DNA from: an uncultured Planctomycetia bacterium
GTDB lineage: Bacteria; Omnitrophota; Gorgyraeia; Duberdicusellales; 4484-171
NCBI GenBank assembly: GCA_964489445.1
Contig: CAZAYU010000003.1
Span: 134,715-198,714 of the forward strand
DNA length: 64,000 nt
Reading direction: 5' to 3'
Shown here piece by piece: positions 1-32,349 of this stretch. The notes beneath the pieces were generated by a model. It searched no databases and was not told where the DNA came from. It saw only the letters and a program-made list of their open reading frames with translations. Numbering within the stretch: the first letter of the stretch is position 1; each line of letters begins with the position of its first letter. Position numbers and translations under genes: made by a program.

Positions 1-5
1 AACCA

Positions 6-3000
6 ATGTATGAATTAGCAGAAAATTATTTTGTCAGAACCGATGGTAGTTATTATATCTATGATTTACCGGAACATTCTTATGATTTGAGATGGATGAA
101 TCCAGAGATAAATGATTTTTATTATCGGAGTGACAACGAAGATTATGTTGTTCCCTGGGTTAATATTGAAAATATTGCCAAGACTATAGTGAATATTCAG
201 GATAAACAGGAAAAAAATAAAGCAATAAGTTATTTAGTAGAAACACTTTTCTTTTATTCTTATATTATGTCGATAAAATATCCAGATTTAAACGAGCGAT
301 TGTCCGATTCGCTAAGTGAATACGAAAATTTTTTAGGATTCCCTTACTATATTCATAAGGCAATTTCTCTCGGGTTAAATAAGATCGAAAAATCAAACCA
401 AGGAAACAAGGATATAGATTCAGAAGCAATATATAGTGTGTTAACAGAATTTAGTAAGCAGTTTGTCACAATGCACACACAGCATAAAGTATTTATCAGG
501 TCAGAACTAAACGCGATAATAGAGTCCTTAGGCCGGTTCGGTTCTTTGAGCAAACAACAAATAAATTATTTGTTAGAATATATGGATAAGATTGATCAAG
601 AAGAGCAAGCTAATCAGGAAATATTTGGTAACAATAATAAAATAGCACAATCAACTTCTTCAGGAATAGCAAAAGATGAAGATGTAAAAAAGAGGCTGAT
701 AGCGGTGATAAATGCATATATCGAAAGTATTAGAAGAGTAGTCGAGGAGGCAACTTTTAAGAATAATGTTAACGACGAGCAAAATGTATGGAAAGAGTAC
801 CTCAGTCAAAGTTCAAAGAAGAGGATGCTAGAGCTTCAGGATCACATATCGCAAGTTGAGGTGTTTTTAAATGAGATCAAAAATGAAGTGGATTTAAAGG
901 GAATTATCAATGTTCTTAATTCGCATTGTATTCAACCTAATCTATCACAAAGAAAGGTGATTGATTTAGTTGGAAAATATATGCCAGATTTAAACAAGGA
1001 GAAAGTATTTATTATTGATGAAAACTCGTTGTTTCGCTCAATATTCGTAAAGAATGAAGACTTCGGGGCGGTATTTGTGAAATTATTAACAGGCAAAGGC
1101 ATAAATGAGGGTTTCATTTTTATTAACAGCCGTCTAGCGCAAAGCAATATTCGACTAGCTTCATTCTTGATCCATGAGACATTTCACCAAAAAGATAATC
1201 TTCTAAACCACACACCATTACGTAAATTTTTATCCGAGGGAATTACTACTTATCTGCAAAAAAAACAATTGAGAAAGATTATTGTCGACGATGCATCGGA
1301 TATTGGTCTAAGTATCAAAGATGAATTAAGAAATGAATTCTCTACCGATTGGCTTTTGGAATTAATGTTTAATGAGAGGGATTATCTTGTAGATCAGGAA
1401 ACGGAAGAATTAGATCAGAGTAAAATATTGAATTGGCGTATTGATAAGATTTTAACTTATCCTAATGAACGGAGATTTGCTGAAGAACTTGTTCGCCGCT
1501 TTGGAGATACTTTTGTACAAGATATGTATCTTTTGGGAGATACACAATTGTTAGAAGATTTATTGGGACCAAGGTTTAAGATGATTGATTCAATTTTAGA
1601 ACGGGAAGACAAGAAAGGTTTATCATGGCAAAAAGAATATTCGCGATTAGCGTTAATTGCGCTTTCTGATCCCGAGGTTAGCATAGACACCTTAAATTGT
1701 TTTGACGAAGTTATAGATATAGTAGTTGATTCTTTAGATGACTGTTATTGGGGTTCGTTAGAATATGAAAAGAATGGAACGTATGGTTTTAATATTATCG
1801 TTCAGACGATTTATAACGATGAAACTATTTATGATTATGCGAAAAAATTCGAGCAAAATGATTATAGCCGAAAAGAAGTTGAAGTTGATGCAAAAGAATA
1901 TGTAAATAGTATTATTAAAGAGAAATTATCTTCTTCGGCATTAAATTTTATCGATCTTTTTGGCAAGGGCAGCTTAAGTGTTTTTAGAGGCAGTTATGAA
2001 GGATATAATCACGTTACACTGTTTTTCAAAGGCGAAAACAATGAGGCAATCATCAAATTATTACCATCGTTAGATAAATATTCAGAATTTGAATTTGCTA
2101 TGCCATTGGAAGAAAGATTGGAGTTTATTAAGCTGGCCAAAGAAAAACTAAAAGGAATTATTACTTTACAGGATGCATTTGAAGATGTTGAAATAGATAA
2201 AAGTGTTTTTCCTCCGGGCTTTGATTTTAATAGTATTCAGGGACAGATGAAAGAGAACTCAGTGCTAGTTTCTTTAGTGAAAGTAGACAGGAAAGTTTCC
2301 CCTTTATTTTATTCCGAGTCTGATAGTGAAAATTCTGTTGAAGCTAGTGATATTCCCTCTTTTGCAGATTTATTAGCTGATGAGATAGGTTTTGGAATAA
2401 ATAATGAGGTTTTTGGATGGAGCCAGGATACTTTTGACTGGTTTAAGAGAGTTGTTGATGATTATTTTGCTAAATTTCAAGAGTGTTGCCGGAGAGGTGT
2501 TTTCCCCGCAGATTATAAAATGAATAATTGCGGCATAACAGATAAAAATGAAGTATTAATCGCGGATATTGATTTGATGCTTTTTGGTGGAAAAAGAAAG
2601 TTAGGTGATGTGTTTATTGATACTTATGGAAAAGATTATCAAAAGATAGTAGAAAATGCTTTTAAGAAGATTAAAGAGACAGATCAGGGATTATTTTTTA
2701 TAGCATTAGAAAATTGTTTGATTGATAGTTTAGGAGAAAAAAAATATTTTTCCGAGGAAACGTTACAAGAGTTGATTAATAAAATGCGTTTGTATTATAG
2801 ACAGCAGGCCGGTGAAGTGTTTAGCTATGAAAATATTGAAAAAATTTGGGCCCAAAACTTGATAGCCGAATATTTAGCAAAAGAGCAAACTATTCAAGAT
2901 GCAATAGGCGTCTTAGGAGAAGAACATTCTCTTGAAGTAATTATGGATGGTAGTTTAAATAACACGGAAAAAAGTATTGTAAATCAAAAACAGCTGGATA

Positions 3001-6000
3001 ATTTTGGGCAAATGCTTTTTGGAAATTTTAAACAAAATGATTTATTTAAAACTATATTTAAGTATGTTTATGATGAAGCTGTGTTATCTGTTCGCGGAGC
3101 AGCCTTTTTACAATTTAAGCCGGTTGCAAATTGTAAGATAATAATTGAATCTCAACTTACGGTAAAAACGCTCGATGATGGGCAAAAAGCATTAGAAGTA
3201 AAGATATCTAGCCGGGCTACAGATGAAAATAATAATCTGGATAATAATTTTAAATATCTTAAGATTAAAGAGGATTCTTTGGAAATAGTAAATATGTTTT
3301 CTCAGCGCTTAGAAGGAGTTTCTTTAGAAAAGATTCCGGGGCAGGTGACGTTTAATGTTCCATTACAGTATTTAGAAATAAATGCAGCTGCTTCATCTGC
3401 ATTAGTAAGAAATAGAGAAAATAAGCCGGTAAATTTAGCAGATATCTTGGGAGAAGGGCAAATAGAGTATTTAGGCCGGGGAAGTAAGCAATTAGCTTTT
3501 CTTTGGAAAAGAGAAGGAAAACCGGATATGGTAGTGAAAATATTTGCCTTGATGGATGGTGATTCCCTGGCGAGAGGAATTGTTGAGAAAGTGAATATTG
3601 ATGAGCAATTAAAAAATATTAAGTTTTCTATTGAGCGTCTAAAAGGAATTACTACGCTTGTTGAGATTGCGAAGGATGTGGAAATTGAACGAATTAGATT
3701 TCCAGATGATTATTTTAATTTTAATGATATGCAAAAAAACTTAGAATATGATGAATTGGTGTTTCCGGTAGTAATAATTGAAGAAAAAGTTATTCCTTTA
3801 GTTTATTCCAATATTTATGATGGAATTACACGAATATCTAAAGGGGATGTGCCTAATTTTTCTGCTATTTTGTCAAAACAAGCCATAGAAGAAATAATGA
3901 ATAATGATATAGCTTCTCTAGGGGAGTTAGAAGTTTTCTCCCGATTCAAAAAAATAGTTGACGGGTATTTTAGAGCATTTGAATATTGTTGTCGGAAAGG
4001 AGTTTTTCCCGGGGATTACAAAATGAGTAATTGTGGGGTAACAGAAGATGATGATGTTCTAATATTTGACACGGATATGATGTTTTTTAATGGAAGTCGT
4101 TCGGTAGATGATGTTCTTTTGGAAATATACGGAGAAAACTATAAGACCCGAATGAAAAGACAGTTCATGGATATTTGGGCAGATGATATTAGTTTATTCT
4201 TTTCCGGAATGAAAGCTATTAGTATGGGTAATTTAGGTGATCAAGAAAATGATCTCGGCAAAAGAATAGAAGATCTAAAGGAAATAATGGTTAACTATTA
4301 TAACCAAAAATTTAAAAAAACATTTAATTACGAAAATATCAATAAAATATGGGCTATGGGTACAGAATCATCTTCTTCAGCGGTGGGAGAAGATAGTCAG
4401 GGGACAACAGAGCAAATAAAGCAAATTGTTGAGGGGCTAAAAATGAAAGTGCATGAGCCTGAAAATTTTGAGACAGCTATTGATGAATTAGAAATCGTAG
4501 CAACGGATACACAATATCAATTAAGCATAAGAATGGAAGCAGTCCAGGCTTTAAATGATTTATTTTTAGAAGCCAAAGATAGTGGAGACGGATTTTATGT
4601 TGCAGTAGTTTTGGCAGGCATCGTGTCTGATTTTCCTGTTCAACAAGTCGTATCAAACAGCATTATTAACATGTTTCTTAATGTTCTTTTAGGTAATCAA
4701 ACTATAAGTATTGATGGAAATCGTAAAAGTCAATATCATGCAGCGCATGGTTTATCCGTAATAGCTGACCGTTTTCCTAAACTAATTACACAAAGTTGGC
4801 TTAAGGCGTTAAAAATCTCTTTAGAAAGTTTAGATTATGCAACACAAATTGAAGCGGGTCGTGTGTTAAAAAGAATAGCAGATTATCGGTCGGAGTTAAT
4901 AAGTCCTAGTCAAAAAACTAATGAATTTAATATAGTAGCTTTTGAATCTGTTAAGAAAGAAATAGCTGATTTATTTGAGGATATAGAAATTATTTCTTTG
5001 ACGCAGAAGACCCCCGATAATAATTTGAGCATAGATGCTAAAGAAACAGGCGAAGTTATTAATCGGATTCTTCAAAAAACGGGCATCAAAATAAAAATTA
5101 GAGTACATGAAGTAGCTAGTATTAAAGCGGCCAAAGGTTTAATTAAGCTATTAAGTTTAAACAGAGATAGTGTTGTTATTGTCTATGCTGAAGAGGTTAG
5201 CGAAAGGCTAACAAGAGAAGAGTTTCCCGGATATAGTATAGAAAAATTTAAAGTTGGGGATATACGCAATAGCATTATCATGTTCGGAGATAGGATAAAG
5301 CCTATTTTTGACTATTCTAATCAGTGTGTAATTCCGTATACTTTTGTTAAATACCGCGCTTCTAATGTTTTTACCAAAGAAGAAAAAGATCAAGCGTACA
5401 AGCAGCTTAGCATAGGTAAAAGACAAATTATTGTATTTGGTTCACCGAATGACAATGAAGAGATAGAAAGCGTGGTAGCAGCCTACAATAGTCTTTATGG
5501 CGAAAAAGACACAAGAAATAGACCATTGCTTATTATTGCGCCTAGATATAAGCAAAAGCCAATTTTCTGGCAAAGGTTATTATCCGGTTATCAACATAAG
5601 ATAAAATTTCGTAATAATTCCACATTGCCTTTTGCTGACATGGAAAGAGAAAATGTACTTATACTGAATACTAAAGGGGAATTGTCAAAAATATATGGAA
5701 TTAGTGATGTGAGTATAGTCGGTAGAGATCGCAATATTGTAGAGCCAGCAATCCAAAGTAAACCGGTTTTTTATTTTGAGGGAGATTGGACTAATAACCA
5801 AGAAGTAAAAGATGGATTAGTAGAGATAGGTGGTGCACGTGAATTTAAATTGGATAGTTTTAGGGAGATAATGGAAAATTTTCAACAACGTTTAATGATG
5901 GGAAAACAAGGTGAAACTTTTGTCAAGCAGTTTAATGAGGAAAAAGAAAAAGAAGTACTAAGAGAGTCTAGTAAATTTATTTTATCTTCTGTAATTAGTG

Positions 6001-8141
6001 CAGCTTTGGGAGGAGAGGAAAAATTGGTATTAGTTACTAGTTCTTCGTCTCTTTCACTACAAGAAGAAAAAGAATTTAAATTTTATGTAGAAAAAGGGAT
6101 TATAGTGTTAATAGAGAAAGGACAGTATGCTGTGCTTCAGAATTGGACTCCGCAATATACCCCCTATATGGCAGGATATTGGTCTAAAGTATCTGGTGAG
6201 GATAGAGCGTTAATAGAAGCAAGAGATATAGCGAAAGAATATTTTACACCGGATGAAATAATGGACGCGGTATCTATTCAGAAAACAGGAGAAAATAACG
6301 AGCAGTTGTTAAATCAAAAAAAAGCACCTAACCTCAGAGAATTAAAGGATGAGGAGTTAAAGAAGATTGGTGATAATTTAGAAATTCATGGTGGTGAATT
6401 CCTGGGCAGAGAATTAACGGTAGATGTTTTAAAAGACAATGGCCTTTTGCCAAAATATGGTGTTGAGTTTGAGGGTGTGGGTATTTATTTTTCCTTGCCT
6501 TATAAATTGGTCAATAATAGAATCGCGTTTGTGGTTTATGTTGAGTCGGGAGGAAGTTTTATTGCTCGTTCCTATTATCGTAGTAATTCACAAGGTTTAT
6601 TTCGTTATCTGCCGAAATACCGGCTTATTGGCGAAAAAGTGACCTGGTTTGATAAAGGATACAGTGAAGAAAGTCTAAACGCTCCGTTGTTCATACAACA
6701 GGCGCTGTCTGTAATTATTCAAAAAGAATTTGCGTTACAGTTGAAAGAAGATCCTTATTTTATATTTTCCGGAACAGCACATTCATTATTTGATGATGTT
6801 ACAGGAACATACTATCGGGAGACCAACGGGAAACCTTTTCCTTTAGATGGTAATTTTGGTGATGTTTACGATGAAAACAATAATCTTGCTCCGGAAGATA
6901 TTAAATTTACTGTTTCGGAAGACGAGCCTGATTTTAATGTGTTAGTAACCCAATTTACGATACCAACAGTACTTTATGGAGATGTGACTGTTGAAGCATA
7001 TCTTTCTAAAAACGGTAAATTTCAATATATGTTTTGTAAGGATAATCTTAATAGAGTATGGATAGGAGGAATAGAAGATAATAGCGAGGTAACTTCATTA
7101 GGGTTAAGGAAAAATTGGGTTTATGCCGGAAAGTTGACCACACCAGCTTTTGAATATGCCAAACAAGCCGGTATTTATGGTAATGGTAATCTAAGTAAAG
7201 GACGTTATGTCGATATGTATAAGCATTACATAAGTAAAATTCCGGTAATTCAGAAATATATTAGCAGAAAACAAAATGGCCAAACTCCTCCTTTTTATTT
7301 ACAGCAAGGAATAGAGCTGATAAATGAGAATGAACATAAAAAAGCAATCGAGGTATTCGATGTAGCGATAGAACTATATCCGAGTGTAAACAGTTTTTGG
7401 TTTCACCGGGGGCGGGCTTACCATTATTTAGGAGATTTAGTAAAAGCCGAACGCGATTATCTTAAAGCTATAGATCTTGACTCTACTGTACTTTCAATAT
7501 ATTTATCATTAATTGATCTTTATTTTCAGAAAGGTGATATTGAGAAAGCTGAGCATATTTTAGAAGATGAGTTGATAAATTTTGATAGGAATAATTACAA
7601 TGAATACCGTCAAAGATTAGATGAGTTTATTGTCCGGAAAAGATTCGGACAAGGGGTACAAGTTACTTTACAGAAAATAAGCATCAAAGAAGGCAATAGA
7701 TCAAAGATACAAGCGGGCAAGGTAATGAAAGGTGTCTTGGCCAATGGTATACAGGCTGGCAGGCCGGTAATATTGTCAGATAAAGGCAAGACTACCCCAG
7801 TAGAAAAAATAGAAGTATTAAATGCTGGCATGCTGAATGTTTATACTCGTACATCTTTATATAAAGTAAGCAGTAATGTTGCTTCTTCGGCAATCAAACC
7901 TGTCTTTTTGGTATCGGAAGAACTTAATACTTTGGATAAACAGAAAAATAAAGGCGGTATTGATCTAACACCTGAACACTTAGATTTAGAGATTAAAGGC
8001 GAAGGAATAAATTTTCAAAATGTTGATATTCCGTTTGATATTCGGAATTTTCAAGGATTTACCTTTCAGATTATAAAAATCAAGCGGATTAAAAATTCAC
8101 AGGAGATTTTTTCTTCGCCAGAACTTGCCTTGGCAAATTAA
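6..8141 (+). CDS. Giant multidomain protein, C-terminal 2711 aa (probably 5'-truncated by the window edge). It carries an HExxH motif, a tandem ~500-aa module duplication, a GT30 (Kdo-transferase, KdtA)-like C-terminal domain and C-terminal TPR repeats
   Basis: One uninterrupted ORF from the track; the frame is open at position 6 with no upstream stop visible. HETFH motif at nt 1173-1187. Paired motifs CCRRGVFPADYKMNNCG (nt ~2484) and CCRKGVFPGDYKMSNCG (nt ~3987), and YENIEKIW/YENINKIW, recur at ~1503-nt spacing. Residues ~1790-1960 (nt ~5370-5900) align to the KdtA C-terminal domain ('LLIIAPRY' vs 'LLILVPRH'; 'NTKGELSKIYGISDVSIVG' vs 'GDTMGELMLLYGIADLAFVGGS'). TPR-like helices at nt ~7300-7560. 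Confidence 0.7.
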   Translation: MYELAENYFVRTDGSYYIYDLPEHSYDLRWMNPEINDFYYRSDNEDYVVPWVNIENIAKTIVNIQDKQEKNKAISYLVETLFFYSYIMSIKYPDLNERLSDSLSEYENFLGFPYYIHKAISLGLNKIEKSNQGNKDIDSEAIYSVLTEFSKQFVTMHTQHKVFIRSELNAIIESLGRFGSLSKQQINYLLEYMDKIDQEEQANQEIFGNNNKIAQSTSSGIAKDEDVKKRLIAVINAYIESIRRVVEEATFKNNVNDEQNVWKEYLSQSSKKRMLELQDHISQVEVFLNEIKNEVDLKGIINVLNSHCIQPNLSQRKVIDLVGKYMPDLNKEKVFIIDENSLFRSIFVKNEDFGAVFVKLLTGKGINEGFIFINSRLAQSNIRLASFLIHETFHQKDNLLNHTPLRKFLSEGITTYLQKKQLRKIIVDDASDIGLSIKDELRNEFSTDWLLELMFNERDYLVDQETEELDQSKILNWRIDKILTYPNERRFAEELVRRFGDTFVQDMYLLGDTQLLEDLLGPRFKMIDSILEREDKKGLSWQKEYSRLALIALSDPEVSIDTLNCFDEVIDIVVDSLDDCYWGSLEYEKNGTYGFNIIVQTIYNDETIYDYAKKFEQNDYSRKEVEVDAKEYVNSIIKEKLSSSALNFIDLFGKGSLSVFRGSYEGYNHVTLFFKGENNEAIIKLLPSLDKYSEFEFAMPLEERLEFIKLAKEKLKGIITLQDAFEDVEIDKSVFPPGFDFNSIQGQMKENSVLVSLVKVDRKVSPLFYSESDSENSVEASDIPSFADLLADEIGFGINNEVFGWSQDTFDWFKRVVDDYFAKFQECCRRGVFPADYKMNNCGITDKNEVLIADIDLMLFGGKRKLGDVFIDTYGKDYQKIVENAFKKIKETDQGLFFIALENCLIDSLGEKKYFSEETLQELINKMRLYYRQQAGEVFSYENIEKIWAQNLIAEYLAKEQTIQDAIGVLGEEHSLEVIMDGSLNNTEKSIVNQKQLDNFGQMLFGNFKQNDLFKTIFKYVYDEAVLSVRGAAFLQFKPVANCKIIIESQLTVKTLDDGQKALEVKISSRATDENNNLDNNFKYLKIKEDSLEIVNMFSQRLEGVSLEKIPGQVTFNVPLQYLEINAAASSALVRNRENKPVNLADILGEGQIEYLGRGSKQLAFLWKREGKPDMVVKIFALMDGDSLARGIVEKVNIDEQLKNIKFSIERLKGITTLVEIAKDVEIERIRFPDDYFNFNDMQKNLEYDELVFPVVIIEEKVIPLVYSNIYDGITRISKGDVPNFSAILSKQAIEEIMNNDIASLGELEVFSRFKKIVDGYFRAFEYCCRKGVFPGDYKMSNCGVTEDDDVLIFDTDMMFFNGSRSVDDVLLEIYGENYKTRMKRQFMDIWADDISLFFSGMKAISMGNLGDQENDLGKRIEDLKEIMVNYYNQKFKKTFNYENINKIWAMGTESSSSAVGEDSQGTTEQIKQIVEGLKMKVHEPENFETAIDELEIVATDTQYQLSIRMEAVQALNDLFLEAKDSGDGFYVAVVLAGIVSDFPVQQVVSNSIINMFLNVLLGNQTISIDGNRKSQYHAAHGLSVIADRFPKLITQSWLKALKISLESLDYATQIEAGRVLKRIADYRSELISPSQKTNEFNIVAFESVKKEIADLFEDIEIISLTQKTPDNNLSIDAKETGEVINRILQKTGIKIKIRVHEVASIKAAKGLIKLLSLNRDSVVIVYAEEVSERLTREEFPGYSIEKFKVGDIRNSIIMFGDRIKPIFDYSNQCVIPYTFVKYRASNVFTKEEKDQAYKQLSIGKRQIIVFGSPNDNEEIESVVAAYNSLYGEKDTRNRPLLIIAPRYKQKPIFWQRLLSGYQHKIKFRNNSTLPFADMERENVLILNTKGELSKIYGISDVSIVGRDRNIVEPAIQSKPVFYFEGDWTNNQEVKDGLVEIGGAREFKLDSFREIMENFQQRLMMGKQGETFVKQFNEEKEKEVLRESSKFILSSVISAALGGEEKLVLVTSSSSLSLQEEKEFKFYVEKGIIVLIEKGQYAVLQNWTPQYTPYMAGYWSKVSGEDRALIEARDIAKEYFTPDEIMDAVSIQKTGENNEQLLNQKKAPNLRELKDEELKKIGDNLEIHGGEFLGRELTVDVLKDNGLLPKYGVEFEGVGIYFSLPYKLVNNRIAFVVYVESGGSFIARSYYRSNSQGLFRYLPKYRLIGEKVTWFDKGYSEESLNAPLFIQQALSVIIQKEFALQLKEDPYFIFSGTAHSLFDDVTGTYYRETNGKPFPLDGNFGDVYDENNNLAPEDIKFTVSEDEPDFNVLVTQFTIPTVLYGDVTVEAYLSKNGKFQYMFCKDNLNRVWIGGIEDNSEVTSLGLRKNWVYAGKLTTPAFEYAKQAGIYGNGNLSKGRYVDMYKHYISKIPVIQKYISRKQNGQTPPFYLQQGIELINENEHKKAIEVFDVAIELYPSVNSFWFHRGRAYHYLGDLVKAERDYLKAIDLDSTVLSIYLSLIDLYFQKGDIEKAEHILEDELINFDRNNYNEYRQRLDEFIVRKRFGQGVQVTLQKISIKEGNRSKIQAGKVMKGVLANGIQAGRPVILSDKGKTTPVEKIEVLNAGMLNVYTRTSLYKVSSNVASSAIKPVFLVSEELNTLDKQKNKGGIDLTPEHLDLEIKGEGINFQNVDIPFDIRNFQGFTFQIIKIKRIKNSQEIFSSPELALAN
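2100..4400 (+). repeat. Diverged ~1.5-kb tandem module duplication inside the first giant gene
   Basis: Motif pairs at nt 2150/3640 (LKGIITL.../LKGITTL...), 2484/3987 (CCRRGVFPADYKMNNCG/CCRKGVFPGDYKMSNCG) and 2826/4330 (YENIEKIW/YENINKIW). The period is ~1503 nt. Confidence 0.75.
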
Positions 8142-8211
8142 AATTGTTTAACAGAATCTTTCAATAGATAACTTTCGTTAAAAGGCTGTATTTTTTTACT
8201 TTTCTGGTAGA

Positions 8212-9267
8212 ATGTCGCATATGGATAAGGATATTTTTTGTTTAGATAATTATAATTATTCGATATCTCAAGAGTTAATCGCTCAAGAACCTTTTTATCC
8301 CCGGGATGCTTGCAGATTGTTGGCTATTAATCGAAAAGTAAAAACAATTGATGAGGGTATATTCAAGGATATTCTTAATTTTTTTAAAAAAGGAGATGTT
8401 TTAGTACTAAATGACACAAAAGTGATCAAAGCGCGGTTATGCGGAAAAAAAGAGACCGGCGGAAAAGTTGAGGTGTTATTATTAAAAGAAAAAAATCCGG
8501 GAATCTGGGAAGCATTGGTTAATCCCGGAAAACGTTTAAAGATAAATGATAAGATTGTGTTTGAAGAAAATAAAATGTTTGCAAAAATTATCGGGAAAAC
8601 TCATCAAGCAACGAGAATTTTGCAATTTACACCGGTAGATTTTAAACAAACCTTAGATCAGGAAGGAGAAGTCCCTCTTCCTCCTTATATTAAGCAGAAT
8701 GTGAAAGATTTATCCGAGTATCAAACTATTTACGCTCAGAAAGACGGATCAGTTGCCGCTCCTACTGCAGGATTGCATTTTACCAAAGAGTTGCTAAGGA
8801 AGATAAAAGAAAAAGGGGTGAGAGTTGTTTATCTTACATTGCATTGCGGTTTAGCTACTTTTCGTCCGGTAAAGTGTGCTGATATTAGAAATCATGATAT
8901 GGATTCTGAATATTTGAGCATTTCGAAAAATGTAGCAGATGAAATTAATGCTGCTAAAAATAATGGCGGAAAAGTTATCGCCGTAGGAACTACTGCAATC
9001 AGAGCTTTAGAAAGTTCGGCAGTTAAAGGTTCTGGATTAACATTTGAAGTAAAGCCTTTTTCCCGAGAAACTGATTACTATATTGTTCCCGGATATAAAT
9101 TTAAAGTAGTGGACATGGTGATCACTAATTTCCATACCCCTTGCTCTACAAATCTAATATTGATGGCGACTTTTTGCGGGCTTAAATTAATTAATAAGAG
9201 CTATCAGGTAGCCCAAGAAAGGAAATTTCGTTTTTTTAGCTTTGGGGATGCTATGATTATTATATAA
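8212..9267 (+). CDS. queA: S-adenosylmethionine:tRNA ribosyltransferase-isomerase (queuosine biosynthesis)
   Basis: N-terminal 'SQELIAQEPFYPRDACRLL' and the overall ~350-aa architecture match QueA. Confidence 0.88.
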   Translation: MSHMDKDIFCLDNYNYSISQELIAQEPFYPRDACRLLAINRKVKTIDEGIFKDILNFFKKGDVLVLNDTKVIKARLCGKKETGGKVEVLLLKEKNPGIWEALVNPGKRLKINDKIVFEENKMFAKIIGKTHQATRILQFTPVDFKQTLDQEGEVPLPPYIKQNVKDLSEYQTIYAQKDGSVAAPTAGLHFTKELLRKIKEKGVRVVYLTLHCGLATFRPVKCADIRNHDMDSEYLSISKNVADEINAAKNNGGKVIAVGTTAIRALESSAVKGSGLTFEVKPFSRETDYYIVPGYKFKVVDMVITNFHTPCSTNLILMATFCGLKLINKSYQVAQERKFRFFSFGDAMIII

Positions 9268-9618
9268 ATATTATATAAGCTATTGTCGTTCAATCATTTA
9301 AAAAATGTAAAAAAACAGGATCTCTACATTGACTAAAGGATGTATTTTTAATATAATAAAAATACATCTTTATTTTCTTTTTATCTGTTAATCTGGGCAA
9401 AAATGATTAGTTTTGAAAGTGGGAAGCAGTTTTTTAATTAATAAGAAATAACTAAATTGCACAGGCTTAATAAATCTTGAAAATAGATATTAAAATAATG
9501 CTTTAATTGTTAGTATATTCCGCTACAGTAAAGATGCTGCAAATTTTCAACGATAGCTTTAGAACATCTTGGCGGAATCAATTCTCCGTCTAAGGCGGAT
9601 CATTAAGGAGGAGTAAAC

Positions 9619-11616
9619 ATGAACAGTGATGTCATGAATAAAAAAACTTTTCTTTTATGCGGGCATGCTCAATCAGGGAAAACATCTTTGGCGGAATGTA
9701 TTTTATTTAAAACTGGCGCTACCAGTCGGTTAGGAAGAGTAGATAATCAAACGACGATTAGTGATTATGAGGATGATGAGAAAGATCGCAAAAGTTCGAT
9801 TAATTTAGCAGTTCTGGGTACTAAATATAAAGGAACTATTGCGTTACAATTTATAGATACTCCTGGGTATCTGGATTTTATTGGAGAGGTTGTTTCTGGT
9901 GTTCGGGCTGTTGATTTTGCGATTATGGTGGTAGATGCTGTAGAGGGAATAGGTATTGGGACAGAAAAAACATGGGCGCTACTAAGGAAAGAGAATATTC
10001 CTTGTTTATTCTTTGTTAATAAGCTGGATAAAGAAAATACTAATTTTAACCATATAGTAAAAGATATAAGAGACAACCTAACAAAAAGCGCAATTAGCTT
10101 TTGTATTCCAGAAGAAAACTCAGTAATAAATATTTTAAAACACAAAGATAAGGATGCTGTTTTGTATAATAAAGCTATGGAAACAATTGCAGAAAGCGAT
10201 GATGTTCTTTGTGAAGAATACCTAGACACAGGCTCTTTAGCGGCAGAGGAAATAATTCCATCTCTTAAAAAAGCAGTTATTAGTTCTCGGATTTTTCCGG
10301 TAATTGGCGGTTCAGCGATTAAAGAATTAGGGATAGATATTTTACTTGAATTTATTTCTGAAATAATGCCTTCAGTGGGAGAATCATCACCTAGGAAGGC
10401 CAAAGATAAAGAAGGAAAAGAAGTAATTGTTGAGCCAAAGATAGATTCACCATTTTGTGGACAAGTGTTTAAAACTGTGATTGATCCGTTCGTGGGCCAG
10501 CTTAATATTATCCGGGTGTTTTCTGGAAAAATAGATTCAAATGCTGATTTTTTTAATTTTAGCAAAGAGCATAAAGAAAAGTTTGGCCAGATTTATTCTT
10601 TACAGGGAAAACAGCAGGTTGCTCAGGAAGGAGTTTGTGTGGGGGATATTGTTGCAGTGGCTAAGCTAAAGGATACACAAACATCTGATACTATTTGTGT
10701 CAGATCTCGTCTTGTAGAATTTTCGAAGTTAGAGTTTCCTTCACCTGCTTATTCGGCTTCGGTCAAACCAAAAACCAGACAGGATGAGGATAAGATATCT
10801 TCAGTGTTAACCCGGTTAACAAGTGAAGATCCTACTTGCAGTGTGTCGCGTGATGCTCAAACTAAGGAGTTAATAATTTCAGGTATGGGCGAATTACATA
10901 TCCATGTAATTATTGAAAGGATGAAGAGAAAATATCAAGCTAATGTGGAGCTAGGAACACCGAAGGTTCCTTATTTTGAAACCATTACTAAGGAAGTAAG
11001 AGTATCTCATAAATATAAGAAACAAACAGGTGGGAGAGGACAATACGGCGATGTTTCAATTATTGTGCAACCCTTAGAGAGAGGGTGTAAATTTGAGTTT
11101 GTAAATAAAATTGTCGGAGGTGCAATCCCACGTAATTTTATTCCTTCGGTAGAGAAAGGAATTCGCAAGGCAATGGCTGAAGGATTTTTAGCCGGCTATC
11201 CGATAACGGATGTCCGAGTAACCTTGTTTGATGGATCATATCATCCGGTTGATTCGTCAGATATGGCTTTTCAGATTGCCGCTTCAATGGCCTTGAAAGA
11301 TGCGTTTAAACAAACAGGAAGTGTATTACTTGAGCCGATCATGAATATAGAAGTAGTTGCTCCGGAGGAAGTAATGGGGCAAATTACCGGCGATATTAAT
11401 AGCCGTAGAGGTAGGGTCATGGGTATGGAGTCGAAAGGCAAGAATGAAGTTGTTAAAGCCCATGTTCCTTTAGCGGAAATGTTCAAGTATACTTCTGATT
11501 TACGTTCAGTTACCGGAGGCCGGGGTAGCTATACAATGAGTTTTTCTAACTACGAGATTGTTCCATCTCGGATTGCTCAAGGACTTGTAGAAAAAATAAA
11601 GAAAACGGAAGAATAA
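9619..11616 (+). CDS. Elongation factor G family GTPase (EF-G paralog-like)
   Basis: Strong SD (AAGGAGGAG) 8 nt upstream. P-loop 'GHAQSGKTS', 'DTPGYLDF', the NKLD motif and EF-G domain IV/V-like C-terminal region. 665 aa, slightly shorter than canonical EF-G. Confidence 0.85.
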   Translation: MNSDVMNKKTFLLCGHAQSGKTSLAECILFKTGATSRLGRVDNQTTISDYEDDEKDRKSSINLAVLGTKYKGTIALQFIDTPGYLDFIGEVVSGVRAVDFAIMVVDAVEGIGIGTEKTWALLRKENIPCLFFVNKLDKENTNFNHIVKDIRDNLTKSAISFCIPEENSVINILKHKDKDAVLYNKAMETIAESDDVLCEEYLDTGSLAAEEIIPSLKKAVISSRIFPVIGGSAIKELGIDILLEFISEIMPSVGESSPRKAKDKEGKEVIVEPKIDSPFCGQVFKTVIDPFVGQLNIIRVFSGKIDSNADFFNFSKEHKEKFGQIYSLQGKQQVAQEGVCVGDIVAVAKLKDTQTSDTICVRSRLVEFSKLEFPSPAYSASVKPKTRQDEDKISSVLTRLTSEDPTCSVSRDAQTKELIISGMGELHIHVIIERMKRKYQANVELGTPKVPYFETITKEVRVSHKYKKQTGGRGQYGDVSIIVQPLERGCKFEFVNKIVGGAIPRNFIPSVEKGIRKAMAEGFLAGYPITDVRVTLFDGSYHPVDSSDMAFQIAASMALKDAFKQTGSVLLEPIMNIEVVAPEEVMGQITGDINSRRGRVMGMESKGKNEVVKAHVPLAEMFKYTSDLRSVTGGRGSYTMSFSNYEIVPSRIAQGLVEKIKKTEE

Positions 11617-22300: not shown

Positions 22301-22876
22301 TTAATATTTTATAAGCATTTCTTTTAGTTCTTGAGAATTTAAACAAGCAATTCCTAATTTTTGGGCCCATTTTATTAAGCCATTGTCAGAGGTAGAAAGA
22401 TAAGCATTTAATTCTTTAGCTAATAAAATTAGGTCAAAATCTTCTTTGCTGTCGATTGTTCCTTCACGCAAAGCTATTCGGTATTCATGTCTTAAAGTTT
22501 TGATGATTTCTTTTTCTTCTTTTTTTTCTGTGTTTAATCCTTTTCGGTTATATTTTTCAGCGATTCGCAAACCTTTATTAATTCGCATACGCATTTCCTC
22601 AATAAGCTCATAAACAAACAAAGCGGGAATTGAAGACTGATAAGAGGAGGGGGGGCGCTTGTCAAGCAGAATAGTTTTTTTTACCGGAAGTGTATCCTCG
22701 ATAAATTTCATTAATTCTGTGTATACCGAAGGAGGAATATGGCATGAAATATGTTGTTTCTCGCTTAGCTGGTCTAAAAAACTTTCTAAAGCGTTTCTCG
22801 GAGTGTTTCCAAACACAAAACGAGAGTCAGGGTTTACAAAAAGGCTAGTGTCTAAAACAATTTTTATTTTATCCAT
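22301..22876 (-). CDS. PIN-domain protein (putative ribonuclease)
   Basis: 'IVLDTSLF' N-terminal PIN acidic motif and a C-terminal 'LSTSDNGL' motif. Isolated minus-strand gene. Confidence 0.5.
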   Translation of the reverse strand: MDKIKIVLDTSLFVNPDSRFVFGNTPRNALESFLDQLSEKQHISCHIPPSVYTELMKFIEDTLPVKKTILLDKRPPSSYQSSIPALFVYELIEEMRMRINKGLRIAEKYNRKGLNTEKKEEKEIIKTLRHEYRIALREGTIDSKEDFDLILLAKELNAYLSTSDNGLIKWAQKLGIACLNSQELKEMLIKY

Positions 22877-24934: not shown

Positions 24935-25855
24935 ATGGAAAAAAAGAAAATCAGTTTAATCATTGGGGTAGTTTTGAGCATTATGGCAATAGTATTTCTT
25001 AACCTATATTTAAGAGGTGAACGCCAAAAAAATGTTAAGGAGTTAGAAAAAGCATTTGTAGAAAAGTACAAAGATTTAGTTACTGTATTCATTGCGGATG
25101 AGGACATAGAGAAAGGTTCTATTTTAAATGCAAATGTACTGAGTACAAAAATAATTCCGAATAAATATGTTGAGCCGCAGGCGGTTACTTCTTTAGCTAA
25201 AGCCGTTGGGATGAAAGCAGCGGTTCCGATTAAAAAAGAAGAACAAATTACCCTAAGTAAATTAATAAATACAAAAACAACTATGGCTAGATCTTTAGCA
25301 ATGGCAACCCCAGTAGGAAAAAGAGCAATAACTATAAGCGTAGATAGCATAATGGGATTAGCAGGAATGATTGTCCCGGGGGATTACGTTGATGTTATTG
25401 CTTTATTGCCTACCCCTACACAGGGTGCTGATGGAACTCAGACTGTACAAATGGTTAATATTCCTATTTTCCAAAATGTGTTAGTGATTGCGGTAGGCGG
25501 GCAATTGGCAGCTAGACAGGATCAAGGGCAATCATCTTCAGGGTGGGGCTGGGGAGTCCAAAAAAGAACTAGTGAAAAAATTGCGCCATCTCCATTAATT
25601 ACATTAGCGTTAAGTTCACAAGATGCCAGCTTACTTTCTTTTGTTAATGAGCAAGGAAGATTGAGGTTAGTTATTCGCTCTCCTGCTGATGCCAAAATAG
25701 AGCAGATTTCGCCGGCAAGCTGGGAAACTCTTTTTAGCTATATAAATTCACTTATTCCTTCTCAAGATATTAAAGATAAGCATACACCGGTTAAAGCTAA
25801 AAGCGTAGAAATTTATCGGGGGGAAAATAGAGATTCAGTTTATATATCAGAGTGA
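24935..25855 (+). CDS. cpaB: Flp pilus assembly protein CpaB/RcpC
   Basis: N-terminal TM followed by a SAF-like/CpaB domain, directly upstream of the secretin. Confidence 0.75.
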   Translation: MEKKKISLIIGVVLSIMAIVFLNLYLRGERQKNVKELEKAFVEKYKDLVTVFIADEDIEKGSILNANVLSTKIIPNKYVEPQAVTSLAKAVGMKAAVPIKKEEQITLSKLINTKTTMARSLAMATPVGKRAITISVDSIMGLAGMIVPGDYVDVIALLPTPTQGADGTQTVQMVNIPIFQNVLVIAVGGQLAARQDQGQSSSGWGWGVQKRTSEKIAPSPLITLALSSQDASLLSFVNEQGRLRLVIRSPADAKIEQISPASWETLFSYINSLIPSQDIKDKHTPVKAKSVEIYRGENRDSVYISE

Positions 25856-27465
25856 TGAAAAAGATTAATATTTTTATTATTATTTTTTTGCTGATTGTTT
25901 GCTTACCGTTAATAGGCTTTTCTTTGTCTGAACGAGAAGAAATTGTTATTTACCAGGGGCAGATGGAATCTGTTTCTGTTTCTGTTCCGGAAAGGATTGT
26001 TATCGATAAGCCGGAAGTAGTTGATGTGATAAGGGTTGGTAATAACGAAATGCTTTTAAGTGGAAAACAAAAAGGGGAGGCTAAGATTAGTTGGAAGGAT
26101 AATCTTGGTGAGCATAATCTTGATGTTAAAGTTTTAGCCGAAGATGTGGAGAAAATAAAAAAGCGGATTGATGATATTCTAAAAAAAATTGGATCTTCGA
26201 ATATTAAGACGAAAACTATGGAGAATGAGGAAAAGGTTTTTCTTTTGGGTGATGTTAAAGATGAGGTGGATATAGAAAGAATTTTTTTAGCGTTGGGAGA
26301 TTTAAAGGATAAGACAGTTAACCTTGTACAAATAAAACCAGAGGACGCAATGGTTGAGATTTCTGTTCAAATTCTTGAATTTCAAAAAGGAAAAGGAAGA
26401 AACTTAGGGTTTGAACTTCCCAGCTCGATAACTTTTAGTGAAATAAATTCTTCTCTTGGCACATCAGGGCTACCTTTTGGCGGACTTTTTCCGATTAGGT
26501 CATGGGATCGAGATAAGTTCTCTGGAACTTTGAGGTTATTAATTAACGAAGGGAAGGCTAAGGTGCTTTCTCGGCCACGGCTTGCTTGTCGTAGTGGTAA
26601 AGAAGCTGAGCTTTTAGTAGGAGGAGAAATTCCGATAATGACCACCGAGGCTTCCGGTAGCAGTGAAACTCCGGGTACTAATATTGAATATAAAGAATAC
26701 GGGATTAAGTTAAAAATAAGTCCGCAAGTAGTTGACGGTGATAAGATAGATATTTTACTTTCTGTGGAGGTAACAGAGGTTGATGAAGCTGGCCTTCAAC
26801 AGCTGGGAGGCAGTGACAATATAACTGCATCAGCTTATCCGTTTACTAAAAGAAATGTTACTACGGAGCTTTCTTTAAGAAATAACGAAATTTTAGCTAT
26901 TGGTGGATTGATTAAACAGAAAACTCAAGAGGATTTAAAAAAATTTCCTTGGTTAGCTGATATCCCGATTTTAGGTGCCTTCTTTAGGAGTAAAAATGTT
27001 ACTCAAGGCGGGGGAGCTGACGAGAAGGGCGATACTGAATTATTCATTACTCTTTCTCCCAAGATAATTTATCGGGATGGTCAAGATAACCAAAAAAAAA
27101 TAAAAGAATCGTTTCGGGAAGAAACATTAGAGAAAAAAATCAGTCGTTACCACGATAGATCTCATATCCCAGATGAACTACAAAGTTATGTGTTAGCAGT
27201 TAAAAAGATGATATTAAGGGATATTTCTTATCCAGAAGTAGCTTCAAGTAGTGGTTGGGAAGGGAGCTTGCTGATTTCTTTAAAAATTTCTTCCGATGGA
27301 AAACTTAAACAGGCGAAAATTGCTGAGTCTTCGGGAAATAAGATATTTGACCAAGATGCTTTAAATGTGGCTAAAGCAGTAAAATACCCCCCCTTTTATT
27401 ACTATAAGATAAGTCTAGAAGAGATAAACTTAGAAATACCTATAGTGTACAAGCCTACGAAATAA
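25852..27465 (+). CDS. cpaC: Tad-type secretin (CpaC/RcpA) fused to a C-terminal TonB_C-like domain
   Basis: Secretin domain 'VLSRPRLACRSGKEAELLVGGEIPI...LAIGGLIKQKTQEDLKKFPWLADIPILGAFF'. C-terminal ~90 aa 'DISYPEVASSSGWEGSLLISLKISSDGKL...SSGNKIFDQDALNVAKAVKYPP' resembles the TonB C-terminal domain. Confidence 0.82.
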   Translation: MMKKINIFIIIFLLIVCLPLIGFSLSEREEIVIYQGQMESVSVSVPERIVIDKPEVVDVIRVGNNEMLLSGKQKGEAKISWKDNLGEHNLDVKVLAEDVEKIKKRIDDILKKIGSSNIKTKTMENEEKVFLLGDVKDEVDIERIFLALGDLKDKTVNLVQIKPEDAMVEISVQILEFQKGKGRNLGFELPSSITFSEINSSLGTSGLPFGGLFPIRSWDRDKFSGTLRLLINEGKAKVLSRPRLACRSGKEAELLVGGEIPIMTTEASGSSETPGTNIEYKEYGIKLKISPQVVDGDKIDILLSVEVTEVDEAGLQQLGGSDNITASAYPFTKRNVTTELSLRNNEILAIGGLIKQKTQEDLKKFPWLADIPILGAFFRSKNVTQGGGADEKGDTELFITLSPKIIYRDGQDNQKKIKESFREETLEKKISRYHDRSHIPDELQSYVLAVKKMILRDISYPEVASSSGWEGSLLISLKISSDGKLKQAKIAESSGNKIFDQDALNVAKAVKYPPFYYYKISLEEINLEIPIVYKPTK

Positions 27466-27467
27466 AC

Positions 27468-29639
27468 ATGACAAAAACAATTGCAATTTATAGCACAAAA
27501 GGCGGTGTAGGTAAGACTACGGTGTCTGTAAATACTGCTTTAAGTCTTTCTTTGAAAAAAAAGAAAGTACTGCTTTTAGATTTAGACTTGGGAGCCCCTT
27601 TGGATATTGCAAAAATGTGTGGCGTTAAGCCTAAAAAGGGAATGGTTGATCTTTTATCAGTTTGGGATAAGGTGAAAAATGATGAAGAAGCCTTAAGGGT
27701 AACTTTTTTTACTCAAATTAATCCTTATTTTCATTTTTTACCGGCGGCAATATCTTCAAGAGCAGTAGCTCATTTAAATGCTGAGTCTATAAGGGGCATA
27801 TTAAAAGCTCTTAAATCTTTCAGTTATGAGTACATCATCATTGATGGAGGATTGAATCTTACTGATATTTTAATCGAGATATTTGATTCTGCTAATGTAA
27901 TTTCTTTAGTGCTTACTCCAGATATTCTTTCATTGTATCAAACAGAATGGATATTAGATACTCTTCAAAGTTTAGGTTTTCCTTTAAGTATGATAAAAGC
28001 AGTGATTAACCGTTCAGAAAGTAAAGGTAGCGTAAGTGCTTTTGAGATTAAACTTCTTTTGCCTATAGAGATTATTTGTACTATTCCTTCTGATGGAAAA
28101 ACTGTGGGCATGGCTTTAAATAGAGGAATTCCTGTAGTTTTGGATTCACCACATAGTCGAATTAGTTTGGCAATAGGTTCTTTAAGTGACGTAATCATCA
28201 AGAGAGAGGACATGTATATATCCCATAAAGATCTGTCTAGCTTAAGGATAAAAGATAGTGCTATTAAAGAAGACACTAAAACTGATCTATGGAGCCGGTT
28301 GGGATTAATGGAACCGTTAAGAGAGGTAAAAATACAAAGAGAAGAGGATATTATTATTGATTTAAAAAAGAAATTACATTCTCAGCTAATAAAAGAAATG
28401 AATCTAAAACGAATGGCGGTTGGCATGATGAATGCAAATGTCGAACAGGCAAGAAAATTAAGGCAAGATGCGGAAAAGATTTTAAGTAATATTTTAGCAA
28501 AAGAAACTGGCGGATTTATTTCTTCTTATGAGGTTAGGCAGAAATTAATTAATGAGATTGTTGATGAAAGCCTGGGTTTGGGTCCTCTAGAGGAATTAAT
28601 AGCTGATCCTCAAATTACAGAAATAATGGTTAATAATAAAAATAGAATTTATGTAGAAAAAAAGGGAAAGATTTATTCTACTAGTAAAAGATTTACTTCT
28701 AATACCCAAGTGCGTACAGTTATTGAAAGAATTTTGGCACCTTTAGGAAAAAGAATTGATGAATCTTCTCCTTATGTTGACGCTCGTCTTCCCGATGGCT
28801 CAAGAGTAAATGCAATAATTCCACCCTTAAGTTTAACAGGGCCGACCTTAACTATAAGGAAATTTGCCAAACAAAGGCTCGGAATAAATGAGTTAGTGAC
28901 AGATTACAATAGCTTAAGTCAAGAAATGGCTACTTTTTTAAAAGCGTGTGTGACTTCACGAAAAAATATTTTGGTAACCGGAGGAACGGGGTCTGGGAAA
29001 ACTACTTTTCTTAATATTCTATCCGAGTTTATTCCTGATCGTGAAAGAATTATTACTGTTGAGGATTCAGCTGAGCTGAAACTTCACCATCATCATTGGA
29101 TAAGGCTAGAGTCAAAACCACCAAATATTGAAGGTAAAGGGCAAATTACAATAAGAGATTTATTTAAAAACACTTTACGCATGCGGCCGGATAGAATTGT
29201 GGTTGGTGAATGCCGGGGTGGGGAAGTTTTAGATATGCTCCAGGCTATGAATACTGGCCATGATGGAAGCATGTCTACGATTCATGCTAATTCTACTCAT
29301 GATGTATTAATGAGGCTGGATAGCATGATTTTAATGAGTGGTATAGAGCTTCCGATACGCGCGATTAGGGAGATGATTTCTTCGGCTTTAGATTTAATTG
29401 TCCATACAGCTCGCTTAAGTGATGGAACAAGAAAGGTTATCCAGATTACTGAAGTTGGCGAAATGGTTGGTGAAACGAACGTGGATCTCAAAGATATATT
29501 TGCTTTTAGACAAAAAGGTATAGATAATGATGGTGTTGTAAACGGTTCTTTTTATCCCACCGAGTATATTCCTTCTTTTTATGAGGAAATCTGTGTGAAA
29601 GGCATTGATTTGCCTAAAGAAACATTTCAGAAAAAATAA
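27468..29639 (+). CDS. Fusion of CpaE/TadZ (ParA/MinD-like ATPase) and CpaF/TadA (secretion ATPase)
   Basis: N-terminal 'IAIYSTKGGVGKTTVS' deviant Walker A. C-terminal half has Walker A 'GGTGSGKTT', 'VGECRGGEVLDMLQAMNTGHDGSMSTIHANS' (VirB11/CpaF family). Confidence 0.85.
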   Translation: MTKTIAIYSTKGGVGKTTVSVNTALSLSLKKKKVLLLDLDLGAPLDIAKMCGVKPKKGMVDLLSVWDKVKNDEEALRVTFFTQINPYFHFLPAAISSRAVAHLNAESIRGILKALKSFSYEYIIIDGGLNLTDILIEIFDSANVISLVLTPDILSLYQTEWILDTLQSLGFPLSMIKAVINRSESKGSVSAFEIKLLLPIEIICTIPSDGKTVGMALNRGIPVVLDSPHSRISLAIGSLSDVIIKREDMYISHKDLSSLRIKDSAIKEDTKTDLWSRLGLMEPLREVKIQREEDIIIDLKKKLHSQLIKEMNLKRMAVGMMNANVEQARKLRQDAEKILSNILAKETGGFISSYEVRQKLINEIVDESLGLGPLEELIADPQITEIMVNNKNRIYVEKKGKIYSTSKRFTSNTQVRTVIERILAPLGKRIDESSPYVDARLPDGSRVNAIIPPLSLTGPTLTIRKFAKQRLGINELVTDYNSLSQEMATFLKACVTSRKNILVTGGTGSGKTTFLNILSEFIPDRERIITVEDSAELKLHHHHWIRLESKPPNIEGKGQITIRDLFKNTLRMRPDRIVVGECRGGEVLDMLQAMNTGHDGSMSTIHANSTHDVLMRLDSMILMSGIELPIRAIREMISSALDLIVHTARLSDGTRKVIQITEVGEMVGETNVDLKDIFAFRQKGIDNDGVVNGSFYPTEYIPSFYEEICVKGIDLPKETFQKK

Positions 29640-30019: not shown

Positions 30020-30232
30020 ATGAGTAAAACAATGAAAAACCAATTATTTAAAGAAAGAGAATCACAAGCTGTTTTAGAATATACGATTCTTTTTGCAATT
30101 GTAGTCGCTGCTTTAGTTAGCTCATTGTTTTTAGCTAATGGGGGTAATACGCTAAAGAGTAATTTTTTGGATATGACAGAAGCTATGGCCGGAGATTCTT
30201 TAGAAAATTCTACTATTGGAGGATGGGATTAA
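30020..30232 (+). CDS. flp: Flp/Fap family pilin 1
   Basis: Class III signal 'ESQAVLEYTILFAIVVAALV' (xxxxEY plus hydrophobic stretch). Confidence 0.7.
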   Translation: MSKTMKNQLFKERESQAVLEYTILFAIVVAALVSSLFLANGGNTLKSNFLDMTEAMAGDSLENSTIGGWD

Positions 30233-30233
30233 A

Positions 30234-30389: not shown

Positions 30390-30405
30390 AAAAAAGGAGG
30401 AGAAG

Positions 30406-32348: not shown

Positions 32349-32349
32349 A

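Follow-up and report, generated by a model that had tools for sequence, protein, structure and literature searches.

A candidate multi-enzyme giant protein of Omnitrophota with a predicted GT30-like glycosyltransferase module, kinase-like and HExxH modules and conserved end domains

Giant open reading frames (ORFs) and Tad loci are recognised hallmarks of the Omnitrophota (PMC10066038). The giant proteins of this phylum presumably help the cells to attach to hosts or to attack them, and most of their sequence is unannotated. Those described as Archaeovorins combine glycosyltransferases of families GT5 and GT1, peptidases, HEAT and TPR repeats in chains of uncertain topology (West-Roberts et al. 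2023, bioRxiv 10.1101/2023.11.21.568195), and it has been proposed that their N-terminal C39 and S8 peptidases ‘might cleave the giant proteins’ (bioRxiv 10.1101/2023.11.21.568195). A multi-enzyme (metabolic cluster) class, with clusters of sugar-metabolism and kinase domains, has also been defined (Nielsen & Lui 2026, bioRxiv 10.64898/2026.06.07.730766). Here, we describe a giant protein encoded at the start of a 64,000-nucleotide stretch of DNA, hereafter the window, from an uncultured Planctomycetia bacterium that GTDB places in the Omnitrophota (Gorgyraeia; Duberdicusellales; 4484-171; GenBank assembly GCA_964489445.1, contig CAZAYU010000003.1, positions 134,715 to 198,714 of the forward strand). 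The gene, giant ORF 1, enters the window from upstream, and its full-length product of 5,094 aa is called P0010.

In our judgement, P0010 is a smaller and differently built relative of the described Omnitrophota giant multi-enzyme proteins. In common with them it has highly divergent, unrelated modules assembled on one chain (glycosyltransferase, kinase or phosphotransferase, peptidase, HEAT and TPR), either a signal peptide or an anchor, an internally duplicated domain whose copies have drifted apart in nucleotide sequence and, perhaps, a Tad or type II secretion system locus nearby. The differences lie in size, 5,094 aa against at least 10,000 in the 2026 catalogue or at least 30,000 aa (a gene of more than 90 kb), and in topology, with one N-terminal hydrophobic segment instead of many transmembrane helices, and P0010 thus falls outside the size classes and topologies catalogued in those studies. 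The C39, S8 and SecA-like domains of Archaeovorins were detected by Pfam in neither half of P0010, while the second giant ORF of the window, giant ORF2, does have a C39 domain; and where Archaeovorins carry GT5 and GT1 enzymes, the glycosyltransferase of P0010 is GT30-like. A preliminary description of the window considered a glycosyltransferase module in such a protein unusual, a view that does not hold, as glycosyltransferases are among the commonest domains of Omnitrophota giants and such a module is therefore to be expected. New elements here are the GT30-like character of this module, two module families (one kinase-like, one with HExxH), end domains specific to the family of P0010 and a short motif at the seams between modules: the terms ‘Kdo’ and ‘GT30’ are absent from the two giant-protein preprints, and the conserved N- and C-terminal domains of P0010 and its seam motif are undescribed in them. 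The general picture given by these preprints is unchanged by P0010. Deeper comparison resolves most of the chain into recognisable, in part predicted, enzyme folds, and the modules also circulate as standalone proteins with signal peptides. This provides concrete modules, namely a predicted CMP-sugar-binding WaaA-like domain, an atypical kinase family and an unclassified HExxH family, as well as a seam motif that can be searched for in larger giants as a possible sign of processing.

The window holds the C-terminal 53% of the protein, that is, 2,711 codons and the stop at positions 3..8141 of the + strand, with the 5′ 7.15 kb of the gene beyond the window. The frame is stop-free from position 3, the ORF as listed (6..8141, 2711 aa) being preceded by the single codon CCA before its ATG at base 6. 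The earlier statement that the protein has at least 2711 aa and a frame open at the window start was correct, since there is no upstream in-frame stop and the real length is 5,094 aa. The adjacent downstream gene, queA, served as an exact-sequence query into public assemblies. The Logan contig SRR7526679_1081 equals the window over 19,267 nt and adds 596 codons upstream before it is cut by the contig end, whereas the gene is internal on an ENA contig (106 kb) and a JGI contig (25.9 kb) and is called there at 5,094 aa; the 3,306 aa readable on those contigs are 100% identical to the window protein. The full-length sequence was returned by an exhaustive HMMER search, which found P0010 itself and seven relatives, and residue n of the window protein is residue n+2383 in P0010 numbering. 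A word-index homologue search with all 2,711 aa as query found nothing at 1e-5, a false negative of long queries; the N-terminal 700 aa of the window protein matched nothing among genome contigs and metagenome contigs, and QueA gave only 39-47% identical matches, from unrelated phyla, among genome contigs. The locus is present in the JGI metagenomes 3300023233 and 3300023253 (Ace Lake, Antarctica), as a 2.5-kb fragment only in 3300023253, and Omnitrophota metagenome-assembled genomes named Ca. Aceula lacicola have been binned from both. These bins and the homologues labelled Omnitrophota (below) make an origin in this phylum likely, by an indirect route.

The glycosyltransferase-like module spans positions 5019..5966 of the + strand (aa 1672-1987; P0010 4055-4370). 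Of its two halves, the N-terminal one (aa ~1695-1805) is reduced, and the C-terminal one (aa ~1805-1975) would bind the nucleotide. [quoted passage not shown] It is real: NCBIfam, AlphaFold with Foldseek, and hhalign agree on it, and the motifs lie at aa 1841-1848 (LLIIAPRY), 1891-1893 (GEL) and 1910-1915 (NIVEPA), with P1846-R1847, G1891-E-L1893, N1910 and E1913 as the key residues. Among profiles, the expected GT30 match was obtained from four NCBIfam WaaA equivalog models, which match aa 1790-1975, the best (E 1.2e-7, 31 bits) covering aa 1793-1936 and model positions 209-354 of 402, in the C-terminal half of WaaA; it was not obtained from Pfam, in which no glycosyltransferase family, Glycos_transf_N (PF04413) included, matched the window protein even at E 10. 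Searches of PDB sequences (phmmer) and PDB profiles were empty for the segment and for its family. A homologue search with the 413-aa segment aa 1600-2012 yielded four relatives, P0006 to P0009, at 34-38% identity, two of which are labelled Candidatus Omnitrophica/Omnitrophota by NCBI. The gene of P0006 (442 aa) is complete from its start to its stop and is situated between a radical-SAM gene and a MerR gene, and P0009 has an N-terminal signal peptide, HEAT-like repeats and then the WaaA-like module.

The model of aa 1575-2015 computed by AlphaFold with the five-sequence family alignment alternates strands and helices, with a predicted local distance difference test score (pLDDT) of 80-95 in the C-terminal half and of 60-80 or lower in the N-terminal half. 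Its top Foldseek match in the PDB is Aquifex aeolicus WaaA (2xci, E 1.4e-6, 372 columns), followed by 4bfc, the isolated CMP-Kdo-binding domain of Acinetobacter baumannii WaaA (TM-score 0.71, root-mean-square deviation 3.6 Å), and all matches are GT-B enzymes. In A. aeolicus WaaA, P211 and R212 touch the cytosine and phosphate, G248 and L250 form part of the cytosine pocket, N273 touches the phosphate and E276 the ribose (PMC6286764), while catalysis and acceptor binding involve the N-domain residues G30/E31 (SVGE), E98, W102 and K162. Aligned by hhalign with Escherichia coli WaaA (NC_000913.3), the family covers 166 columns (E 8.5e-5, ~23% identity) and pairs APRY with VPRH, TKGEL with TMGEL and RNIVEP with HNPLEA; directly before RNIVEP, six residues of the E. 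coli protein are missing (the GGS...GGHN loop). We take these E. coli motifs, from their conservation in the family, to be the positions of the A. aeolicus CMP contacts. The module would thus share with WaaA/KdtA (GT30; PDB 2XCI/2XCU for A. aeolicus, 4BFC for the A. baumannii C-domain), its best profile and structure match, the same GT-B build and the P-R (phosphate), G-E-L (cytosine pocket) and N..E (phosphate and ribose) elements. The contexts differ, WaaA being a ~400-aa membrane-surface enzyme and the module being residues 4055-4370 of a 5,094-aa chain, behind a helical repeat region. Judged by these profiles and the predicted structure, this segment forms a true GT-B module, with the GT30 Kdo transferases as its closest known relatives and with a CMP-type donor pocket that appears conserved.

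The window protein also contains an internal duplication. In a BLASTP self-alignment, aa 646-952 match aa 1142-1452 over 313 aa (E 4e-55, 34% identity), and the two copies are placed at 1944..2861 (aa 647-952) and 3429..4361 (aa 1142-1452), both on the + strand. The two diverged tandem modules of ~500 aa that had been reported are therefore correct as to the duplication and its 1.49-kb spacing (an offset of 496 aa), and not as to the repeated unit, which is ~310 aa; the ~180 aa following copy 1 are not repeated and form a spacer (2862..3389, +, aa 953-1128) without a family match. Relatives of copy 2 are P0011 (38% identity), in which the module is combined with LysM and PAS domains, and P0012 (33%), in which it stands with PAS, GAF, HATPase and receiver domains. 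Four elements are invariant in the alignment of the two copies with P0011 and P0012: a Gly in a G-x-G, the Lys of V-[IV]-K-[IVL]-[FL], a D-x-K-x-x-N and an Asp 13 residues past the Asn. The last two are spaced exactly as they are in protein kinases, where they form the catalytic and metal-binding loops. The corresponding residues are K683 (in AIIKLL), D836, K838, N841 and D854 in copy 1, and G1157/G1159, K1178, D1337, K1339, N1342 and D1355 in copy 2; alignment columns G27 and K46 are invariant, and are assigned to the glycine-rich loop and its lysine by position only, in a weak model showing three strands and then a long helix.

The closest family is AceK, an atypical protein-kinase-like enzyme. 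Pfam AceK_kinase (PF06315) matches the whole protein at copy 2 with E 3e-5 and 24 bits, against a cut-off of 29.3, and copy 1 with a sub-threshold E of 0.017. By hhalign, the family aligns with E. coli AceK over 64 columns (E 2e-4), its D, N and D falling on AceK 457, 462 and 475, which we take to be the catalytic residues of AceK. The D-x-K-x-x-N and +13 Asp are common to both, and the Gly-rich loop and Lys may be; the phosphatase/regulatory domain of AceK is not found in the modules, and the aligned portion is limited to those 64 columns and remains below the Pfam cut-off. A word-index search with copy 2 found nothing, and PDB sequence and profile searches with the modules were empty. WaaP-like lipopolysaccharide (LPS) kinases were also considered and rejected, as hhalign shows no similarity to WaaP. 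The ~310-aa modules probably adopt a protein-kinase-like fold.

Upstream of the first of these copies lies a module with an HExxH motif (789..1943, +, aa 262-646). The HETFH noted before is present at aa 390-394 (nt 1173-1187), is conserved in homologues and is followed by E411-G412 (within nt 1230-1250). An exhaustive HMMER search with aa 262-646 gave five homologues at 21-26% identity: two large proteins of 2,201 and 2,587 aa, one of 1,618 aa, and the standalone P0013 and P0016, each of ~500 aa with a signal peptide. In the alignment of all six sequences, the columns H135, E136, H139, E156 and G157 are invariant, the E-G pair standing 17-21 residues downstream of the motif. The family has no significant match in Pfam, NCBIfam or the PDB; single members reach E ~0.07, one to M1 and one to M61. 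With gluzincins such as M1 and M61 the module shares the HExxH and a downstream Glu, whose role as third ligand is presumed, and it differs from them in lacking a significant family match. We therefore regard it as a putative zinc metallopeptidase, possibly of gluzincin type.

Both ends of the chain are conserved in relatives. The N-terminus of P0010 resembles a signal peptide (KKRASASSR-AIIIFVLIAFIVATFAV-HFPKKTYA/SA), with a positive n-region, a 17-aa h-region and a small-x-small site; it is the only strong hydrophobic segment of the protein, is similar in all complete relatives and fits membrane or surface association, the latter having been presumed before. A conserved N-terminal domain of ~370 aa comes after it. 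Over P0010 residues 1-403, identity to the N-terminal part is 58% in P0015 and 34% in P0014, and no match was obtained in Pfam, PDB or NCBIfam. At the other end, a domain of ~60 aa with the signature GGID[LF]xP (7941..8138, +, aa 2646-2711), which begins GGIDLTP and ends GFTFQII, occurs once in the window, recurs at the C-termini of P0015 (45% identity) and P0007 (36%), has no family match in Pfam and may be a sorting or secretion tag. P0010 and P0015 share both end domains and the HExxH module, and differ in everything else between. The gene for P0015 (2,587 aa; Logan SRR28093593_70923, 2031-9794) has as neighbours a gene for a class I aminoacyl-tRNA synthetase on one side and a PAS-HD gene on the other. 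The layout of P0010 resembles MARTX toxins and RTX giant adhesins, as a works-like analogy only, in the long, here putatively secreted chain, the conserved ends and the exchangeable enzyme modules, some of which also occur standalone. It differs from them in the absence of RTX repeats and a cysteine protease domain from P0010 and of type I secretion genes from the window, and in the Sec-type N-terminal signal; no sequence relation of P0010 to MARTX or RTX proteins was found.

The remaining parts of the window protein are less readily classified. An alpha-helical region before the WaaA-like module (4386..5015, +, aa 1461-1670), all-helical in a low-confidence model, has no Pfam HEAT match and is called HEAT-like because the standalone P0009 has clear HEAT-like repeats at the same place. 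Behind the WaaA-like module is one whose fold matches nothing in Pfam, NCBIfam or the PDB (6057..7265, +, aa 2018-2420), followed by TPR repeats (7275..7616, +, aa 2424-2537), recognised by Pfam TPR_1, TPR_2 and TPR_8 and by consensus TPR proteins of the PDB. Their scores at aa 2431-2520 (TPR_2 37.3 bits, cut-off 27; TPR_1 36.4, 27.8; TPR_8 32.5, 25.7) are the only ones on the window protein above Pfam cut-offs. The C-terminal TPRs of the preliminary description are thus confirmed, with the precision that ~175 aa lie beyond them.

The boundaries between modules are marked by a motif, [AS]SS[AP][VILA], which occurs nine times in P0010 against 0.09 expected, a number reached in none of 2000 shuffles. 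Within the window, seams lie on the + strand at 1929..1943 (SSSAL, aa 642-646), 3390..3404 (ASSAL, aa 1129-1133), 4368..4385 (SSSSAV, aa 1455-1460) and 7881..7895 (ASSAI, aa 2626-2630), together with a seam-like Ser run at 6039..6056 (SSSSLS, aa 2012-2017) that coincides with the aligned C-terminus of the standalone P0006; further seams lie upstream of the window, at P0010 residues 376-2023. More generally, seam positions match the ends of standalone homologues in the WaaA-like and HExxH alignments. P0015 has five copies and P0014 four, and the motif is found in no relatives but these, which have the same N-terminal domain. The other ORFs of the window (8,384 aa) have none, and giant ORF2 has one seam-like copy, SSAI at aa 7080 (nt 62768). 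At the seams, 18 of 19 Ser codons are TCN, while the commonest Ser codon of the ORF is AGT. A DNA word, TCTTCRGCR, is enriched at seams (8 against 1.5 expected), and was discarded as a nucleotide signal because the encoded motif and the TCN preference explain it. Two further junction features are found in the upstream half: an embedded twin-arginine (Tat) signal, SRRKFLKTMGVATAGVVASQFKPIEALA, at P0010 residues 1400-1440, seven residues past a seam, made up of SRRKFLK, an h-region and ALA (Pfam TAT_signal E 0.004), and a 40-aa junction element (AAAFIKNFTLFSVSDSSSSA...) present twice, at residues 678-717 and 1362-1423. The simplest reading is that the chain was built by fusion of gene-sized modules. 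The seams may be simple linkers or glycosylated stretches. They might also be processing sites, the 5,094-aa ORF then being a polyprotein cut into a metallopeptidase, two kinases, a WaaA-like transferase and others; this is suggested by the seam-adjacent Tat signal, which would function only as a new N-terminus, and on the present sequences we think it unlikely. The N-terminal domain, which travels with the seams in P0010, P0014 and P0015, could be a processing or export device.

As to how P0010 works, we incline, by a little over an even chance, to an exported or tethered multi-enzyme chain whose separate modules act on envelope or host-cell substrates. The N-terminal signal would export the chain or tether it at the envelope, and the modules would act as separate enzymes on one polypeptide: the WaaA-like module would bind a CMP-activated, Kdo-like ulosonic acid and transfer it to an acceptor other than lipid IVA, and the kinase-like modules would phosphorylate, and the HExxH module cleave, envelope or host-cell substrates. 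Such a role, in interaction with a host or prey, has been put forward before for the giant multi-enzyme proteins of Omnitrophota (bioRxiv 10.1101/2023.11.21.568195; bioRxiv 10.64898/2026.06.07.730766). Several points weigh against this picture. Model confidence is only moderate to low for the acceptor half of the WaaA-like module; hhalign of this half with the E. coli WaaA N-domain gave E 0.53 and no alignment, for which reason a recognisably conserved N-domain was rejected, and by eye a KAAKGLIKLL helix resembles LAAIPLVRAL of WaaA, with Ser or Ala at the place of the catalytic Glu of SVGE. Motifs and profile matches below threshold are what speaks for the kinase-like fold, and AlphaFold of copy 2 with the four-sequence alignment reached a pLDDT of 40. 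Giant ORF 1 and the Tad locus are 16.8 kb apart, and within 8 kb of the P0015 gene there are no Tad genes, so that the family has no fixed link to such loci. Since ATP and CMP-sugars are metabolites of the cytoplasm, exported transferase or kinase modules would need the cytoplasm of a host or another donor. P0012, lastly, also has a hydrophobic segment of this sort at its N-terminus, and the kinase-like module behind it is accompanied by PAS, GAF, HATPase and receiver domains, all of them normally cytoplasmic. The availability of ATP and CMP-sugars in the cytoplasm only and the domain company in P0012 would both suit a scaffold on the cytoplasmic face, in which an uncleaved N-terminal anchor leaves the chain in the producer's cytoplasm as an assembly line for its own envelope glycoconjugates, with a Kdo-like transferase and sugar kinases in an echo of WaaA with KdkA or WaaP. 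P0011 has a second, weak hydrophobic segment (residue 829) between its LysM and kinase-like modules that would return the latter to the cytoplasm, and in E. coli the locus for the LPS core encodes two kinases, WaaP and WaaY, alongside WaaA. This is a serious rival, which we nevertheless find less likely than not: the N-termini resemble cleavable signal peptides, the standalone versions of the WaaA-like (P0009) and HExxH (P0013, P0016) modules carry signal peptides, the upstream half of P0010 holds the embedded Tat-type signal, and the kinase-like modules show neither similarity to WaaP by hhalign nor, on the window protein, a match to a Kdo/WaaP-kinase family in Pfam.

The exported-chain reading assumes an active transferase, and the WaaA-like module might instead be non-catalytic, a relic pseudo-enzyme or a nucleotide- or carbohydrate-binding domain that has persisted for its binding or scaffolding role. 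In the AlphaFold model its acceptor half comprises only ~110 aa with four strands, about half the size of the WaaA N-domain, without recognisable counterparts of the SVGE, ETELWPN and K162 regions, and its scores are far under the family cut-offs. The donor-pocket R, G..L, N and E are kept in P0010, however, with R and G-E-L invariant in all five family members at 30-38% identity and N..E kept in the three that reach that far, which argues for selection on nucleotide binding; a Glu, E1702, is also invariant in the first strand-helix loop, three residues before the position of the SVGE Glu. Loss of catalysis is a serious alternative, and on balance we do not expect it. Much more improbable is that the organism's own lipid A Kdo transferase has been fused into a large protein. 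The organism is a diderm, as MlaEFD, SurA-like proteins and a secretin in the window indicate, and WaaA models are the best matches of the module, but its 31 bits compare with curated NCBIfam equivalog cut-offs of 363-590, Pfam gives no glycosyltransferase match, the N-domain cannot be aligned, and the homologues are sporadic, one of them bearing a signal peptide. From its sequence, the module is not an orthologue of WaaA, and the label of Kdo transferase cannot be kept in the family sense. That the whole ORF is an artefact, a chimeric assembly or a chance open frame with coincidental motifs, has a negligible probability. At least five independent assemblies (ENA, JGI and Logan), made from different samples, give the same sequence, which speaks against an assembly error; a stop-free frame of 8.1 kb is unlikely by chance in DNA of 33% GC, and homologues with conserved motifs exist for every module.

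Downstream of giant ORF 1 are queA, fusA, ychF, purH, a Mur ligase gene, mnmE, folE, a PduO-type adenosyltransferase gene and a radical-SAM gene, then mlaEFD and two surA-like genes. The Tad locus extends from 24.9 to 39.1 kb. It includes rcpC (24935), a gene for a secretin with a C-terminal TonB_C domain (25852-27465, +), one for a TadZ-like ParA/MinD ATPase fused to a TadA (T2SSE) ATPase (27468-29639, +), at least six small Flp-type pilin-like genes with an N-terminal hydrophobic motif ...EY[AT]xL... (30020-32348, +), after these an acidic, Asp-rich ORF of 354 aa (32311-33375), a TadE/G-like gene and tadB/tadC. To say that the giant ORFs flank the Tad system is loose for giant ORF 1, as ~16.8 kb of housekeeping genes separate its stop from rcpC. 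Almost all genes of the window are on the + strand, the two convincing genes on the - strand encoding a PIN_5 ribonuclease (22304-22876) and an IS200-like (Y1_Tnp) transposase (39145-39885), the latter placed between the Tad locus and a riboswitch that precedes giant ORF2. The GC content of the window is 32-41%, and the GC skew (G over C) is high and even, +0.2 to +0.3, falling to ~0 at 38-42 kb, where the transposase and riboswitch lie.

Giant ORF2 (41531-64000, +) continues past the window end and encodes at least 7,490 aa. Its product has a hydrophobic anchor at the N-terminus and, at aa 174-256, a Peptidase_C39 domain (E 1e-5). Modules shared between the two giant ORFs, an idea raised earlier, are not seen, the BLASTP comparison showing no similarity. 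The riboswitch, of the c-di-GMP-I class (Rfam RF01051; 41247-41377, +), scores 47 bits against a gathering threshold of 35 (E 4e-6), and its position ~150 nt upstream of the start of giant ORF2 suggests that this gene is controlled by c-di-GMP.

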